NCBI RefSeq assembly: GCF_056746865.1
Contig: NZ_CM163382.1
Reading direction: 5' to 3' (one strand)
DNA length: 64,000 nt
The notes beneath the pieces are model-generated. The model did no database searches, had not been told where the DNA came from, and saw nothing but the letters and a program-made list of their open reading frames with translations. The position numbers and the translations under genes are program-made. Shown here one piece after another: positions 20,930 to 36,192 of this stretch. The first letter of the stretch is position 1. Every line of letters starts with the position of its first letter.

Positions 20930-23900
20930 ATGTTGTACGATAAATCCCTTGAGAGGGATAACTGTGGTTTCGGCCTGATCGCCCATATAGAAGGCGAACC
21001 TAGCCACAAGGTAGTGCGTACTGCAATACACGCACTGGCCCGCATGCAGCACCGTGGCGCGATTCTCGCCGATGGTAAAACCGGTGACGGTTGCGGCTTG
21101 CTGTTACAAAAACCGGATCGCTTTTTTCGCATCGTTGCGCAGGAGCGCGGTTGGCGTTTAGCGAAAAACTACGCCGTCGGGATGCTCTTCCTGAATAAAG
21201 ATCCTGAACTCGCCGCTGCCGCACGCCGCATCGTTGAAGAAGAGCTGCAACGCGAAACCTTATCGATTGTGGGCTGGCGTGATGTCCCCACCAACGAAGG
21301 CGTGCTGGGTGAAATCGCCCTCTCCTCTCTGCCACGCATTGAGCAAATTTTTGTGAACGCCCCGGCAGGCTGGCGTCCGCGCGATATGGAGCGCCGTCTG
21401 TTTATCGCCCGCCGCCGCATTGAAAAGCGTCTCGAAGCCGACAAAGACTTCTACGTCTGTAGCCTGTCGAATCTGGTGAACATCTATAAAGGTCTGTGTA
21501 TGCCGGCGGATCTGCCGCGCTTTTATCTGGATCTTGCGGACCTGCGTCTGGAATCGGCCATTTGCCTGTTCCACCAGCGCTTCTCCACTAACACCGTACC
21601 GCGCTGGCCGCTGGCGCAGCCGTTCCGCTACCTGGCGCATAACGGTGAAATCAACACCATCACCGGTAACCGCCAATGGGCGCGTGCGCGTACCTATAAA
21701 TTCCAGACGCCGCTGATCCCTGACCTGCACGACGCCGCGCCGTTCGTCAACGAAACCGGTTCTGACTCCAGTTCCATGGATAACATGCTGGAACTGCTGC
21801 TGGCAGGCGGGATGGATATCATCCGCGCCATGCGTCTGTTAGTACCACCCGCCTGGCAGAACAACCCGGATATGGACCCGGAACTGCGTGCCTTCTTTGA
21901 CTTTAACTCCATGCATATGGAGCCGTGGGATGGCCCGGCGGGCATCGTGATGTCTGACGGTCGTTTTGCCGCCTGTAACCTCGACCGTAACGGTCTGCGT
22001 CCGGCGCGCTACGTCATCACCAAAGATAAGCTCATCACCTGCGCCTCTGAAGTCGGTATCTGGGATTACCAGCCTGACGAAGTGGTCGAAAAAGGCCGCG
22101 TCGGGCCAGGCGAACTGATGGTTATCGACACCCGCAGTGGGCGTATTCTGCACTCGGCAGAAACCGATGACGATCTGAAAAGCCGCCACCCTTATAAAGA
22201 GTGGATGGAGAAAAACGTCCGCCGTCTGGTACCGTTTGAAGATCTGCCCGATGAAGAAGTGGGTAGCCGCGAACTGGACGACGACACGCTTGCCAGCTAT
22301 CAGAAACAGTTTAACTACAGCGCGGAAGAGCTGGACTCCGTAATTCGCGTACTGGGCGAAAACGGTCAGGAAGCGGTCGGTTCGATGGGTGACGACACCC
22401 CATTCGCCGTGCTCTCCAGTCAGCCGCGCATTATTTACGACTACTTCCGCCAGCAGTTTGCCCAGGTGACTAACCCGCCAATCGACCCGCTGCGTGAAGC
22501 GCATGTTATGTCGCTCGCCACCAGTATCGGTCGTGAAATGAACGTCTTTTGCGAAGCAGAGGGCCAGGCGCACCGTTTAAGCTTTAAATCGCCGATTCTG
22601 CTCTACTCCGATTTCAAACAGCTCACGACGATGAAAGAGGAGCACTACCGCGCAGATACACTGGATATCACCTTTGACGTCACTAAAACCACGCTCGAAG
22701 CGACGGTCAAAGAGCTGTGCGACAAAGCCGAAAAAATGGTACGTAGCGGCACTGTGCTGCTGGTGCTCTCCGACCGGAATATCGCTAAAGATCGCCTGCC
22801 GGTTCCGGCTCCGATGGCGGTTGGCGCGATCCAGACCCGTCTGGTCGATCAAAGCTTGCGTTGCGATGCCAACATCATCGTCGAAACCGCCAGCGCCCGC
22901 GATCCGCACCATTTCGCCGTGTTGCTGGGCTTCGGTGCGACGGCTATTTATCCGTACCTTGCCTATGAAACGCTGGGCCGCCTGGTAGACACCCACGCGA
23001 TTGCCAAAGATTATCGTACCGTGATGCTCAACTACCGTAACGGCATCAACAAAGGCTTGTACAAAATCATGTCCAAAATGGGCATCTCCACCATCGCCTC
23101 TTACCGCTGCTCGAAACTGTTTGAAGCGGTCGGTCTGCACGATGATGTCGTAGGCCTGTGCTTCCAGGGCGCTGTTAGCCGCATTGGTGGGGCAAGCTTT
23201 GAAGACTTCCAGCAGGATCTGCTGAACCTGTCGAAACGTGCCTGGCTGGCGCGTAAGCCCATCAGCCAGGGCGGCCTGCTGAAATACGTGCACGGTGGCG
23301 AATACCACGCCTACAACCCGGACGTGGTGCGCACACTGCAACAGGCGGTACAAAGCGGCGAGTACAGCGACTATCAGGAATACGCGAAGCTGGTTAATGA
23401 GCGTCCGGCAACCACGCTGCGCGATCTGCTGGCAATTACGCCGGGTGAAAACGCGGTCAACATTGCTGATGTTGAACCGGCAAGCGAACTGTTTAAACGC
23501 TTCGATACCGCTGCGATGTCTATCGGCGCGTTAAGCCCGGAAGCCCACGAGGCGCTGGCTGAAGCGATGAACAGCATCGGCGGCAACTCTAACTCCGGTG
23601 AAGGCGGCGAAGATCCGGCACGCTACGGCACCAACAAAGTGTCGCGCATCAAGCAGGTGGCTTCCGGTCGCTTTGGGGTTACTCCGGCGTATCTGGTCAA
23701 TGCCGACGTCATTCAGATTAAAGTCGCCCAGGGCGCGAAGCCGGGCGAAGGCGGTCAGTTACCGGGCGATAAAGTCACGCCTTACATCGCCAAACTGCGC
23801 TATTCGGTGCCCGGAGTGACGCTGATCTCCCCGCCGCCGCACCATGATATCTACTCTATCGAGGACTTAGCGCAGCTTATTTTCGACCTCAAGCAGGTTA

Positions 23901-25390
23901 ACCCGAAAGCGATGATCTCCGTGAAGCTGGTTTCCGAACCGGGAGTAGGCACCATCGCGACTGGCGTGGCGAAAGCTTATGCCGATTTAATCACCATCGC
24001 AGGCTATGATGGCGGCACCGGCGCAAGTCCGCTTTCATCGGTGAAATACGCAGGCTGTCCGTGGGAACTCGGCCTGGTGGAAACCCAACAGGCGCTGGTT
24101 GCCAACGGTTTACGTCATAAAATTCGTTTGCAGGTTGATGGCGGCCTGAAAACGGGCGTTGATATCATCAAAGCGGCGATTCTCGGCGCAGAAAGCTTCG
24201 GCTTCGGCACTGGCCCAATGGTCGCGCTCGGTTGTAAATATCTGCGAATTTGCCACCTGAACAACTGCGCCACGGGTGTAGCAACTCAGGATGACAAACT
24301 GCGTAAGAATCACTATCACGGCCTGCCGTTCAAAGTGACGAATTACTTTGAGTTTATCGCCCGTGAAACCCGCGAGCTGATGGCACAGCTGGGGGTAACG
24401 CGGCTGGTGGATCTGATTGGTCGCACCGACCTGCTGAAAGAGCTGGACGGTTTCACCGCCAAACAGCAGAAACTGGCGCTGTCGAAACTGCTGGAGACCG
24501 CCGAGCCGCATCCCGGTAAGGCGCTCTACTGCACCGAAAACAACCCGCCGTTTGATAACGGCCTGCTGAACGCGCAGTTGCTGCAACAGGCGAAACCGTT
24601 TGTCGATGAGCGCCAGAGCAAAACCTTCTGGTTCGATATTCGCAACACCGACCGTTCTGTCGGCGCGTCGCTTTCAGGCTATATCGCCCAGACGCACGGC
24701 GATCAGGGTCTGGCAGCCGATCCGATCAAAGCGTACTTCAACGGCACCGCAGGCCAGAGCTTCGGTGTGTGGAACGCGGGCGGCGTGGAACTGTACCTGA
24801 CCGGTGATGCCAACGACTATGTCGGTAAAGGCATGGCGGGCGGCTTAATCGCCATTCGTCCTCCGGTTGGTTCAGCCTTCCGCAGCCACGAAGCAAGCAT
24901 TATCGGCAACACCTGCCTGTATGGCGCGACCGGTGGTCGTCTGTATGCCGCAGGCCGCGCGGGTGAACGTTTCGGCGTGCGTAACTCCGGTGCTATCACC
25001 GTGGTAGAAGGCATTGGCGACAACGGCTGTGAATATATGACGGGCGGTATTGTCTGTATTCTGGGTAAAACCGGCGTTAACTTCGGCGCTGGCATGACTG
25101 GCGGCTTCGCTTACGTTCTCGATGAAAGCGGCGATTTCCGCAAACGCGTTAACCCGGAACTGGTCGAGGTCTTAAGCGTTGACGATTTGGCGATCCATGA
25201 AGAGCATCTGCGTGGACTTATCACCGAGCATGTTCAGTATACTGGCTCTCAGCGCGGTGAAGAGATTCTGGCGAACTGGTCAACCTTCGCCACTAAATTT
25301 GCGCTGGTTAAACCGAAGTCCAGTGATGTAAAAGCACTGCTGGGTCACCGTAGTCGTAGCGCAGCAGAGTTGCGCGTGCAGGCGCAGTAA
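20930..25390 (+). CDS. gltB: glutamate synthase large subunit
   Basis: Glutamine amidotransferase, FMN and GXGXG domains; start set at [15 protein letters not shown] (1486 aa), with in-frame upstream ATGs at 20822 and 20837. Confidence 0.9.
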
Positions 25391-26821
<1,431 letters not shown>

Positions 26822-27004
26822 GCTCTGTCCCAGCGCCGCCTCCTCAGAAAAGAGTCGGCGCTGAAATTCTCCTTTCTTTCTGGAAAGCGCCTCGCATAAT
26901 CTGAAGAAAACCAATGTAATACGCTCATCTGGATTGTTACCGGCAGATGCCCGGCGTATAGCTGATTCCATTATTCAACACAGCGCCATAAAAAGGGACA
27001 GATA

Positions 27005-28132
27005 ATGGAATCGCTCTCAGAGAGAACCACAGCAGGCTACCAGCAAATCCACGACGGCATTATTCATCTGGTCGATAGCGCCCGAACGGAAACGGTACGT
27101 AGCGTTAACGCGTTAATGACCGCGACGTACTGGGAAATTGGCCGACGAATTGTCGAATTTGAACAAGGCGGTGAGGCCAGGGCTGCGTATGGTGCGCAGC
27201 TAATCAAGCGACTATCAAAGGATTTAAGTCTAAGGTATAAGCGTGGGTTCTCTGCAAAAAACTTACGCCAAATGAGGCTTTTTTACCTCTTTTTTCAACA
27301 TGTTGAAATTCGCCAGACAGTGTCTGGCGAATTAACACCATTGGGAATGCCGCAGACACCGTCTGCAGAATTCCCATCGGCAAAGATTTGGCAGACGCTG
27401 TCTGCCAAATCTTTCCCCCTGCCCTGGTCCACCTACGTCCGTCTACTTTCCGTTAAAAACGCTGACGCCCGCAGCTTTTATGAAAAAGAGACGCTCCGCT
27501 GTGGTTGGTCTGTCCGCCAGCTAGAGCGGCAAATTGCGACCCAATTTTATGAGCGAACACTACTGTCACATGATAAATCAGCCATGCTGCAACAACACGC
27601 TCCTGCCGAGATGCATATTCTTCCGCAGCAGGCGATACGCGATCCCTTTGTGCTCGAATTTCTGGAATTGAAAGATGAATACTCAGAATCCGATTTTGAG
27701 GAGGCGCTGATCAACCACCTGATGGATTTCATGCTGGAACTTGGGGATGATTTTGCCTTTGTTGGTCGGCAGCGAAGGTTACGCATTGATGACAACTGGT
27801 TTCGGGTCGATCTGCTGTTTTTCCACCGCCGTTTACGCTGCCTGCTAATCGTCGATCTAAAAGTGGGCAAATTTAGCTATAGCGATGCCGGACAGATGAA
27901 TATGTATCTCAACTACGCCAAAGAGCACTGGACGCTACCGGATGAAAATCCGCCCATCGGTCTGATTCTCTGTGCAGAGAAAGGAGTCGGAGAAGCGCAT
28001 TATGCACTGGCTGGTTTGCCTAACACCGTTCTGGCGAGTGAATATAAGATGCAACTACCTGATGAAAAACGACTCGCGGATGAACTCGTTCGAACACAGG
28101 CGGTGCTAGAGGAAGGCTATAGACGCCGATAA
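27005..28132 (+). CDS. yhcG: DUF1016-family protein with C-terminal PDDEXK-like nuclease fold
   Basis: 375-aa ORF MESLSERTTAGYQQIHDGIIHLVD…; length and sequence match YhcG as I recall it; contains the internal tandem palindromic repeat. Confidence 0.8.
   Translation: MESLSERTTAGYQQIHDGIIHLVDSARTETVRSVNALMTATYWEIGRRIVEFEQGGEARAAYGAQLIKRLSKDLSLRYKRGFSAKNLRQMRLFYLFFQHVEIRQTVSGELTPLGMPQTPSAEFPSAKIWQTLSAKSFPLPWSTYVRLLSVKNADARSFYEKETLRCGWSVRQLERQIATQFYERTLLSHDKSAMLQQHAPAEMHILPQQAIRDPFVLEFLELKDEYSESDFEEALINHLMDFMLELGDDFAFVGRQRRLRIDDNWFRVDLLFFHRRLRCLLIVDLKVGKFSYSDAGQMNMYLNYAKEHWTLPDENPPIGLILCAEKGVGEAHYALAGLPNTVLASEYKMQLPDEKRLADELVRTQAVLEEGYRRR
27307..27411. repeat. three diverged 39-bp tandem units, each with a ~25-27-bp palindrome (GCAGAC…GTCTGC core), in-frame within yhcG
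   Basis: Seen directly: AATTCGCCAGACAGTGTCTGGCGAATT (27307-27333), CGCAGACACCGTCTGCAGAATTC (27351-27373), GATTTGGCAGACGCTGTCTGCCAAATC (27385-27411); centres ~39 bp apart. Confidence 0.85.
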
Positions 28133-28146
28133 TTTCAGCAATTTCG

Positions 28147-28173
28147 AATTCTGCAGACAGTGTCTGCAGAATC
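28147..28173. repeat. fourth copy of the yhcG-type palindrome, 15 bp downstream of the yhcG stop
   Basis: AATTCTGCAGACAGTGTCTGCAGAATC, near-perfect palindrome sharing the GCAGACAGTGTCTGC core. Confidence 0.8.
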
Positions 28174-28191
28174 TTTAAAACGAACTAAGTT

Positions 28192-29524
<1,333 letters not shown>

Positions 29525-33783: not shown

Positions 33784-33798
33784 GGTAATGACTCCAAC

Positions 33799-34302
33799 TT
33801 ATTGATAGTGTTTTATGTTCAGATAATGCCCGATGACTTTGTCATGCAGCTCCACCGATTTTGAGAACGACAGCGACTTCCGTCCCAGCCGTGCCAGGTG
33901 CTGCCTCAGATTCAGGTTATGCCGCTCAATTCGCTGCGTATATCGCTTGCTGATTACGTGCAGCTTTCCCTTCAGGCGGGATTCATACAGCGGCCAGCCA
34001 TCCGTCATCCATATCACCACGTCAAAGGGTGACAGCAGGCTCATAAGACGCCCCAGCGTCGCCATAGTGCGTTCACCGAATACGTGCGCAACAACCGTCT
34101 TCCGGAGCCTGTCATACGCGTAAAACAGCCAGCGCTGGCGCGATTTAGCCCCGACGTATCCCCACTGTTCGTCCATTTCCGCGCAGACGATGACGTCACT
34201 GCCCGGCTGTATGCGCGAGGTTACCGACTGCGGCCTGAGTTTTTTAAATGGCGGAAAATCGTGTTGAGGCCAACGCCCATAATGCGGGCGGTTGCCCGGC
34301 AT
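33799..34302 (-). CDS. insB: IS1 transposase InsB reading frame (expressed as InsAB' by -1 frameshift)
   Basis: 167-aa [28 protein letters not shown]… overlapping insA 3' end in the -1 frame. Confidence 0.85.
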
Positions 34303-34496
34303 CCAACGCCATTCATGGCCATATCAATGATTTTCTGGTGCGTACCGGGTTGAGAAGCGGTGTAAGTGAACTGCAGTTGCCATGTTTTACGGCAGTGAGA
34401 GCAGAGATAGCGCTGATGTCCGGCAGTGCTTTTGCCGTTACGCACCACCCCGTCAGTAGCTGAACAGGAGGGACAGCTGATAGAAACAGAAGCCAC
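34221..34496 (-). CDS. insA: IS1 InsA transcriptional repressor / transposase N-terminal part
   Basis: 91-aa [46 protein letters not shown]… (zinc finger + HTH). Confidence 0.9.
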
Positions 34497-34551
34497 TGGA
34501 GCACCTCAAAAACACCATCATACACTAAATCAGTAAGTTGGCAGCATCACC

Positions 34552-34560
34552 AACGGAATA
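34552..34560. repeat. IS1 target-site duplication, right copy (AACGGAATA)
   Basis: Identical 9-mer to 33775-33783. Confidence 0.85.
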
Positions 34561-34824: not shown

Positions 34825-36192
34825 ATGTTCGGCATAATTATATCTGTCATCGTATTAATTACGATGGGCTATTTGATCCTGAAAAACTACAAACCTCAGG
34901 TGGTGCTGGCTGCCGCAGGTATCTTCCTGATGATGTGCGGTGTCTGGTTAGGGTTCGGTGGTGTGCTCGATCCCGCCAAAAGCAGCGGCTACTTGATCGT
35001 CGATATTTATAATGAAATCCTGCGCATGCTGTCCAACCGCATTGCTGGATTGGGGCTGTCGATTATGGCAGTGGGCGGTTATGCCCGCTATATGGAGCGC
35101 ATAGGGGCAAGTCGCGCGATGGTGAGCTTGTTAAGCCGCCCGTTAAAACTCATTCGCTCGCCGTATATTATTCTGTCGGCAACTTACGTCATCGGCCAAA
35201 TCATGGCGCAGTTTATTACCAGCGCCTCCGGTCTGGGTATGTTGCTGATGGTCACCTTATTTCCGACGCTGGTGAGTCTGGGAGTAAGTCGTCTCTCTGC
35301 GGTGGCGGTTATCGCAACCACCATGTCCATTGAGTGGGGGATTCTGGAAACGAACTCCATTTTTGCTGCCCAGGTCGCAGGAATGAAAATTGCCACTTAC
35401 TTCTTCCACTACCAGCTTCCGGTCGCCTCTTGCGTCATTATCTCGGTGGCGATCTCCCACTTTTTCGTGCAACGCGCTTTCGACAAAAAAGATAAAAATA
35501 TCAATCACGAACAGGCAGAGCAAAAAGCTCTCGATAATGTCCCGCCGCTCTATTACGCCATTTTACCGGTGATGCCGTTAATCCTGATGCTCGGCTCGCT
35601 GTTCCTTGCCCACGTCGGGCTGATGCAGTCAGAACTGCATCTGGTGGTGGTGATGTTACTGAGTTTGACGGTGACGATGTTTGTTGAGTTCTTCCGCAAG
35701 CATAACTTGCGCGAAACAATGGATGATGTGCAGGCGTTTTTTGACGGCATGGGTACGCAGTTTGCCAACGTGGTAACGCTGGTGGTCGCGGGTGAAATAT
35801 TTGCGAAAGGCTTAACGACGATTGGCACTGTCGATGCGGTTATCAGGGGTGCGGAGCATTCTGGTCTGGGCGGTATTGGCGTGATGATTATTATGGCGCT
35901 GGTCATTGCCATTTGTGCCATTGTGATGGGCTCAGGCAATGCGCCGTTTATGTCATTTGCCAGTCTTATTCCGAATATCGCAGCCGGACTACATGTGCCA
36001 GCGGTTGTAATGATTATGCCGATGCATTTTGCCACGACGCTAGCGCGCGCTGTTTCGCCGATTACTGCGGTGGTGGTCGTTACGTCAGGAATTGCAGGCG
36101 TTTCGCCTTTTGCGGTAGTGAAGCGGACAGCGATCCCCATGGCAGTCGGTTTCGTGGTGAATATGATTGCCACAATCACGCTATTTTATTAA
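34825..36192 (+). CDS. dcuD: DcuC-family C4-dicarboxylate transporter
   Basis: Start at ATG 34825 ([11 protein letters not shown]…, 455 aa) preceded by GGAG; the ORF-track start at 34807 is a TTG. Confidence 0.88.

Follow-up and report, generated by a model that had tools for sequence, protein, structure and literature searches.

Does a strain of Escherichia coli that lacks the Yhc fimbrial operon downstream of gltD owe this to a deletion, or is it K-12, in which the operon is present, that departs from the older arrangement? The question was raised by an earlier note on the 64,000-nucleotide stretch of DNA analysed here (hereafter the window), which pointed out that gltD and yhcG lie only 183 bp apart and stated that in K-12 gltF and the yhcADEF genes stand between them, a difference of roughly 6 kb that it took to be either a deletion here or an insertion in K-12. 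The facts from which the note set out hold: gltD ends at position 26821 and yhcG starts at 27005, leaving a spacer of exactly 183 bp; the K-12 locus (NZ_CP064678) indeed reads gltD, gltF, yhcA, yhcD, yhcE, yhcF, yhcG; and the difference in length amounts to 7,028 bp relative to K-12, or 5,828 bp with the IS5 left out. Our overall reading, which we hold with good confidence, is that the arrangement of this locus in the window is the common one and probably ancestral, and that the haplotypes found there are old and have been exchanged between lineages.

The features of the locus are collected in Table 1; genes were called from the listing of open reading frames together with NCBIfam and Pfam scans. 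The annotation of strain 118UI names the same gene gltD. YhcG carries both domains of its family, DUF1016_N (PF17761, 146 bits) and the YhcG_C PDDEXK domain (PF06250, 192 bits), and the nan operon begins beyond nanQ, which is convergent with yhcG. The reading frames of gltD and yhcG are both intact at the junction, and the part of the spacer next to yhcG is presumed to hold the yhcG promoter and 5' UTR.

Table 1. Features of the gltB-nanQ region, in positions of the window.
Feature	Position	Strand	Basis or remark
gltB	20930-25390		annotated
gltD, glutamate synthase small subunit	25403-26821	+	open reading frame; TIGR01318, 898 bits; left anchor of the junction
gltD-yhcG intergenic spacer, 183 bp	26822-27004	+	operon-less junction
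53-bp segment specific to the operon-less haplotype	26824-26876	+	homology breakpoints against K-12
G+C-rich hairpin followed by a T-rich tract	26831-26863	+	candidate gltBD terminator; fold and inverted repeat
yhcG-proximal part of the spacer	26877-27004	+	counterpart of the final ~130 bp between yhcF and yhcG in K-12 and E. marmotae, by homology
yhcG, 375 codons, PD-(D/E)XK nuclease family	27005-28132	+	right-hand flank of the junction
Three tandem 39-bp (13-codon) units, each with a palindrome, in the yhcG reading frame	27307-27414	+	
Fourth palindrome, same family as the yhcG units	28148-28172	+	between the yhcG and nanQ stops
nanQ (yhcH), N-acetylneuraminate anomerase	28192-28656	-	NF040884, 235 bits; outer right limit of the variable gap

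The pairwise alignment with K-12 that the earlier note had proposed (BLASTN) runs at about 97% identity through gltD, ends 2 nt past its stop codon (26823) and resumes at 26877, so that 53 bp of the window occupy the place of 7,080 bp in K-12, namely gltF-yhcADEF with IS5. To the right of 26877 the two sequences are 72-78% identical over about 100-130 bp, rising to 93-98% at the start of yhcG. In K-12, where yhcE is split by the IS5, 7,211 bp separate the stop of gltD from the start of yhcG; in the IS5-free carrier GSH8M-2 the interval measures 6,011 bp. The K-12 block is atypical in composition, with 29-47% G+C versus 54-59% in the gltB-gltD stretch sampled. As judged from the alignment, the difference is a replacement rather than a clean insertion, 53 bp being exchanged for 6.0-7.1 kb and the adjoining ~130 bp having diverged to the extent just given. 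Of the choice between deletion and insertion that the note had left open, the evidence favours a gain in the haplotype that K-12 carries, though not in the form of a simple insertion.

The main rival explanation is that the Yhc operon was ancestral in Escherichia or more widely, and that the junction of the window goes back to an old deletion and later came to prevail. The junction itself speaks against this. With tblastn, no homologue of GltF, YhcA, YhcD, YhcE or YhcF was found in the whole 64-kb window, nor any usher, chaperone or DUF1120 subunit gene of the kind that marks a beta-class chaperone-usher locus, and blastn of the junction against the K-12 locus at word size 7 returned only unrelated hairpin matches. 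Neither direct repeats nor microhomology bracket the breakpoints in the alignment and the repeat search; the relict fragments or direct repeats for which the earlier note had proposed to inspect the 183 bp failed to appear by blastn, tblastn or repeat search. Deleting the K-12 block would not yield the 53 bp with which the spacer opens, and blastn-short found no counterpart of this segment in those K-12, E. albertii, E. marmotae and Citrobacter loci that contain the operon. A deletion scar of gltF-yhcADEF was rejected on the absence of relics, on the absence of the 53 bp from K-12 and on the presence of the same junction in outgroups. By its sequence, the spacer of the window looks like an intact orthologous intergenic region; since it is not derivable from K-12 by deletion and is conserved between genera, we conclude that the adjacency of gltD and yhcG is probably the older arrangement, and that the strain has lost nothing.

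The survey of presence and absence that had also been proposed was run on 5,426 complete RefSeq E. coli genomes; a genome was scored as window-type when one match covered at least 80% of a 501-bp probe centred on the spacer. The window-type junction was present in 3,140 genomes (58%) and the K-12-type left junction in 1,163, while yhcD was found in 1,136 (21%), every copy being at least 99% identical, also with word-11 blastn. In a further arrangement, seen in 947 of the 5,426 (17%), gltD directly faces nanQ at a distance of 67 bp, with neither the operon nor yhcG between them. The window thus has the majority arrangement, and K-12 a minority one (21% of complete genomes). Divergent yhcD alleles were sought in the 5,426 complete genomes by sensitive blastn, and none was found. 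The yhcG-proximal flank falls into the 80-90% identity band in 1,136 genomes, the same number as carry yhcD, which indicates that the diverged flank is completely linked to the operon. A misassembly or regional collapse as the cause of the short junction has a negligible probability, and we consider it excluded because 3,140 complete genomes share the junction; other species have it as well, and both flanking reading frames are intact.

Two of these arrangements deserve description. The gltD-nanQ allele is carried by, among others, strains M1/5 (L003:9174-9240, where window positions 26822-28191 are missing) and SE15, both of phylogroup B2; it holds one solo hairpin, 28 nt of which are identical to the first yhcG palindrome, and its left flank, GAGGTAACAAT, is common to K-12. 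Among the window-type genomes, 715 (3,140 less 2,425) lack a full-length match to a 2.8-kb probe, and those sampled are of the BL21 type. In BL21 (L085:5606-6407) the spacer is window-type, and yhcG is cut at the end of the third palindrome, at about 27410, its 3' part being replaced by an open reading frame of 101 codons that is annotated as a transposase; we did not accept that annotation, as the frame has no Pfam match. The spacer of the window is 98.4% identical in BL21 and 95.5% identical, the 53 bp included, in the GTDB representative of E. coli, a divergent strain.

Searches were extended to other species by an outgroup scan with GltD as query, one genome per species and at least 80 loci, followed by tblastn and locus look-ups; the scan left out E. 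fergusonii and most Salmonella and Citrobacter. The operon-less junction is found well outside E. coli. The type strain of E. albertii has a window-type spacer that is 97.7% identical, again with the 53 bp; Pseudocitrobacter faecalis has gltD, a spacer of 181 bp, yhcG and nanQ, the spacer aligning end to end with that of the window; and in Salmonella enterica yhcG follows directly after gltD, the yhcG-proximal part of the spacer being alignable. The operon, too, has counterparts at this site. In other strains of E. albertii, gltF-yhcADEF comes right after gltD with a YhcD 82% identical to that of K-12, and nanQ is next, without yhcG. In E. marmotae the operon stands at the same site (YhcD 67% identical) and is followed by a K-12-type yhcF-yhcG spacer, 84.8% identical between K-12 and E. 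marmotae, and a degraded yhcG. In Citrobacter (L093:7465-12619) the gltD-nanQ gap holds a beta-class operon (YhcD 56%) that is inverted and therefore convergent with gltD, and the same gap holds an inverted operon in Enterobacter asburiae (L012:11467-17543) and E. cloacae (L014), with YhcD at 41-49%. Klebsiella oxytoca has a homologous beta-fimbrial operon at a different locus. The flanking GltB and GltD proteins are 98-99% identical within Escherichia and 92.8-95.8% identical in comparison with Citrobacter and Enterobacter. The occurrence of orthologous operons at the same site in Escherichia species, Citrobacter and Enterobacter implies that the presence/absence polymorphism predates E. coli.

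In domain searches of these loci, GltF and YhcF of K-12 match PF06551 (DUF1120), the YhcA orthologue of the E. albertii and E. marmotae operons matches PapD_N, and usher domains are found in the K-12, E. albertii and E. marmotae loci. The K-12 operon is itself a mosaic: from gltF to yhcD its proteins are nearer to those of E. albertii, with 76-83% identity, while at the yhcF end they are nearer to those of E. marmotae (86%). Neither species is acceptable as a recent donor to K-12, given that YhcD is only 82% and 67% identical, respectively. The presence or absence of the operon is combined with that of yhcG in four ways, all of which have been observed. Beside the Citrobacter operon lie a yhcG relic of 68 residues and genes resembling those of cytosine permease and deaminase.

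How far do these counterparts revive the view that the operon was there from the beginning and that the window descends from its loss? Operons orthologous to that of K-12 in the same gap of E. marmotae, E. albertii, Citrobacter and Enterobacter fit such a view, the divergence of YhcD (41-82% identity) suggests a long stay, and the B2-type allele, which shares the left flank of K-12, could derive from the operon haplotype through recombination between its two flanking hairpins. Against it, besides the lack of any relic at the junction, stand the orthology of the whole spacer in P. faecalis, terminator stem included, and the adjacency of gltD and yhcG in Salmonella; the inversion in Citrobacter and Enterobacter, moreover, means that simple vertical descent of a single insertion is insufficient too. 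On balance we regard ancient residence followed by loss as unlikely. It seems to us likelier that an ancestral gltD-yhcG junction received the operon than that a very old loss created the junction. We hold this less firmly than the overall reading, because Citrobacter and Enterobacter have the operon in this gap too and because a solo hairpin of the yhcG type follows gltD in operon haplotypes. Together these two observations point to a reticulate history.

A second rival explanation is a recent insertion in the K-12 lineage, by which a transposon-like or integrase-borne island would have entered the gltD-yhcG spacer. The low G+C content of the block, the IS5 within it, the identity of at least 99% among all E. 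coli copies and the bracketing of the block plus yhcG by two related hairpins might all be read in this way. Yet no integrase or transposase is annotated or called in the block besides the IS5, and this is secondary, as it interrupts yhcE and is absent from GSH8M-2 (L097) and from 13 enterotoxigenic E. coli (ETEC) carriers (PMC5216030). There is no target-site duplication at the 26823/26877 breakpoints, and none of the 1,139 places where yhcD was found is on a plasmid. Orthologues occupy the same chromosomal site in other species, and the diverged 130 bp of flank fit the import of a whole haplotype rather than a clean insertion. We therefore consider recent insertion by a mobile element very improbable.

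On the preferred reading, that of old haplotypes exchanged between lineages, the ancestral gap would have consisted of gltD, a 183-bp spacer with its hairpin, yhcG, a palindromic hairpin and the convergent nanQ. The Yhc operon would belong to an alternative haplotype that replaces the first 53 bp and is linked to the diverged ~130 bp, and crossovers in the conserved flanks, within the gltD 3' end on one side and yhcG/nanQ on the other, would let the haplotypes move by homologous recombination. K-12 and BL21, two laboratory strains that differ in haplotype, are 99.5-100% identical over about 3.2 kb of gltB-gltD up to about 750 bp before the gltD stop; the SNPs between them are clustered in the interval bounded by about -750 in gltD and about +200 in nanQ, and beyond it identity is back at 98-100%. 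Near-identical flanks around different haplotypes are the pattern to be expected from swaps of whole haplotypes, and divergence climbs steeply towards the indel, as fits a long coexistence of two haplotypes. We infer that exchange proceeds by homologous recombination in the flanks and without mobile-element machinery, the extent of the tract being drawn from two or three pairwise comparisons. Along the same boundary, the last ~200 bp of nanQ (28192-28400) are 90-95% identical among E. coli strains, K-12 and BL21 included, that are 98-100% identical further on; such a polymorphic 3' end is consistent with a recombination boundary beside the variable gap. The operon haplotype is old in the genus, being present at deep divergence in three Escherichia species, yet within E. 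coli it is a single, nearly clonal allele. It is reported to belong to phylogroup A, an assignment taken from the literature and a few named strains. The earlier note had placed the event either in this strain or in K-12; that the two differ by the block stands, but both haplotypes are old and occur in other Escherichia species, and neither strain is the origin.

Accessory surface loci are known to be swapped by way of conserved flanks, as in the case of the O-antigen clusters between galF and gnd. The gltD-nanQ gap resembles replacement of this type in having alternative contents at one address between conserved flanks, raised divergence beside the variable segment, near-identical genomes with different haplotypes (K-12 and BL21), and a mosaic likeness to other species. 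It is unlike such replacement in that one of the alternatives is empty and the scale is small (6 kb).

That Yhc is present in some strains and absent from others is already documented as an ordinary strain difference. Among chromosomal chaperone-usher fimbriae, Yhc has been described as 'sporadic' and 'highly under-represented', and whether such loci are remnants or recent gains was left open (Wurpel et al., 2013, PMC3559732). The yhc locus has further been described as a beta-class locus restricted to phylogroup A, intact and without IS5 in 13 ETEC genomes (Del Canto et al., 2017, PMC5216030). That IS5 disrupts the K-12 copy is likewise published. The Yhc operon of K-12, gltF-yhcADEF, is precisely the block that the window lacks; its absence here is the normal state of E. 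coli and carries little weight as a discovery. In neither of the two papers (PMC3559732, PMC5216030) did we find the anatomy of the junction, the counts, the conservation of the empty junction across genera or the operons of E. marmotae and E. albertii. These bear on the question of remnant or gain posed by Wurpel et al., since the empty junction is cross-genus and the operon haplotype is old in the genus yet nearly clonal in E. coli.

The survey also affects how the glutamate synthase operon is described. K-12 is the exception at gltD-yhcG, and the textbook 'gltBDF operon', with the same gltF gene directly downstream of gltD, is confined to roughly one in five complete E. coli genomes. Within that operon, gltF was reportedly assigned a role in regulating glutamate synthase by Castano et al. 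in 1992, a role that Goss et al. are said to have questioned later, in 2001. GltF is a fimbrial-subunit-like protein of the DUF1120 family, and with yhcD as a proxy gltF is absent from about 79% of complete E. coli genomes, so that it cannot belong to the regulation of gltBD in general.

Termination of gltBD probably takes place within the short conserved spacer in most strains, and yhcG comes next. The candidate is the hairpin at 26831-26863, with arms CAGCGCCGCCTC and GAGTCGGCGCTG, which was also detected as inverted repeat I16 and for which RNA folding gave -19.2 kcal/mol (z = -3.1). The tail after the stem, AAATTCTCCTTTCTTTC, is T-rich with interruptions, and the stem is stable and conserved, in a longer form, in P. 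faecalis. A consensus scan for promoters and terminators called nothing in the gltD-yhcG spacer, this hairpin included, which is thus, on folding and conservation, a predicted gltBD terminator. No Rfam family matched either the window's spacer together with yhcG or the left flank of K-12 at E <= 1. In K-12, a putative stationary-phase antisense RNA, G0-10703, overlaps the 5' region of yhcG by 128 bp (PMC7967276); the corresponding region there is the yhcF-yhcG spacer (L001:17450-17633).

A side observation concerns the palindromes within and next to yhcG. The motif CAGAC-NNN-GTCTG occurs 4 times in the window against an expectation of 0.08, with arms of 11-15 bp. Three copies lie in frame in yhcG (27307-27333, 27343-27375 and 27382-27414; repeat family D1, with spacings of 39 and 39), in a region with a fold z of -9.4; their arms are 12-15 bp long, and in the protein they appear as I-x-Q-T-x-S-(G/A)-E-type repeats. 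Among the alleles examined, the length of YhcG goes with the number of units: 349 aa with one, 362 aa with two and 375 aa with three. The fourth palindrome, which follows the yhcG stop, is read through in frame in one allele of 391 aa; it has a positional homologue beside nanQ in every Escherichia haplotype examined and is likely to be a bidirectional terminator. The yhcG of Salmonella has a single palindromic unit, one unit therefore being an ancestral part of the YhcG domain; that of P. faecalis has two, and the arms show compensatory changes. In a set of 16 distinct units, pairing holds in 94% of cells, both partners have changed in 5 of 12 pairs, and none of 500 shuffles reaches the score, bearing in mind that the inner five pairs served to pick the 16 units.

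Such palindromes recall the Rickettsia palindromic elements, which are inserted in frame within coding genes. The likeness lies in short palindromic units that stand in frame in yhcG in variable copy number; unlike the Rickettsia elements, the yhcG units are tandem rather than dispersed in the genome. A dispersed REP-like family was considered and discarded, the genomes holding the CAGAC-NNN-GTCTG palindrome solely at the gltD-nanQ locus (in the genome-wide count every hairpin counts twice, as it matches both strands). As a side observation, the yhcG palindromic units may be new.

Several structural variants at the locus have breakpoints that fall within such a hairpin. Among them are the yhcG truncation of the E. 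albertii type strain, with a hybrid hairpin, the BL21-type truncation of yhcG, the degraded yhcG of E. marmotae, and in-frame losses of one or two yhcG units. The solo hairpins that follow gltD in K-12, the B2-type allele and a metagenome-assembled genome (MAG) of Pseudocitrobacter belong here as well, and E. marmotae also has a solo hairpin after gltD. The palindromes do not lie at the breakpoints of the operon, and so do not explain its absence. One might go further and see the gltD-nanQ gap as a long-lived, trans-species modular polymorphism whose variants arise at a new kind of element, the 39-bp yhcG palindromes, of which the solo hairpins after gltD would be relics, maybe through recombination directed by hairpins or cruciforms and possibly by the YhcG nuclease; we consider this quite unlikely.

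The hairpin after gltD and the following ~45 bp are about 79% identical over some 50 nt, by our own count, between K-12 (L001:10434-10510) and the Pseudocitrobacter MAG (L013:11446-11510). This MAG lacks both yhcG and the fimbrial operon, and some of the terminator stem known from window-type spacers is retained in it. We also considered whether the ~45 bp that follow the left hairpin of K-12 might be a yhcG relic in reverse orientation, a possibility set aside because the similarity beyond the strand-symmetric palindrome is unconvincing. Separately, an 18-nt direct repeat links the 3' end of gltD (26796-26813, GCATTATGAACTGGCTGG) with the 3' part of yhcG (27997-28014, GCATTATGCACTGGCTGG); its copies lie 1,201 bp apart and are identical at 17 of 18 positions, and by a rough estimate about 0.001 such pairs would be expected by chance.

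Elsewhere in the window, the comparison with strain 118UI shows no mismatch and one 1-base gap over the aligned ~50 kb, apart from an extra IS1 (33785-34552, with InsA and InsB frames on the minus strand) that 118UI lacks. This IS1 lies between nanR and a dcuC/dcuD-like transporter gene and is flanked by a 9-bp target duplication, AACGGAATA. A further presence/absence difference in the window concerns this dcuC/dcuD-like gene, which lies at about 34825-36192 between nanR and sspB: the window and 118UI have it, and M1/5, E. marmotae and P. faecalis, in which nanR adjoins sspB, lack it.
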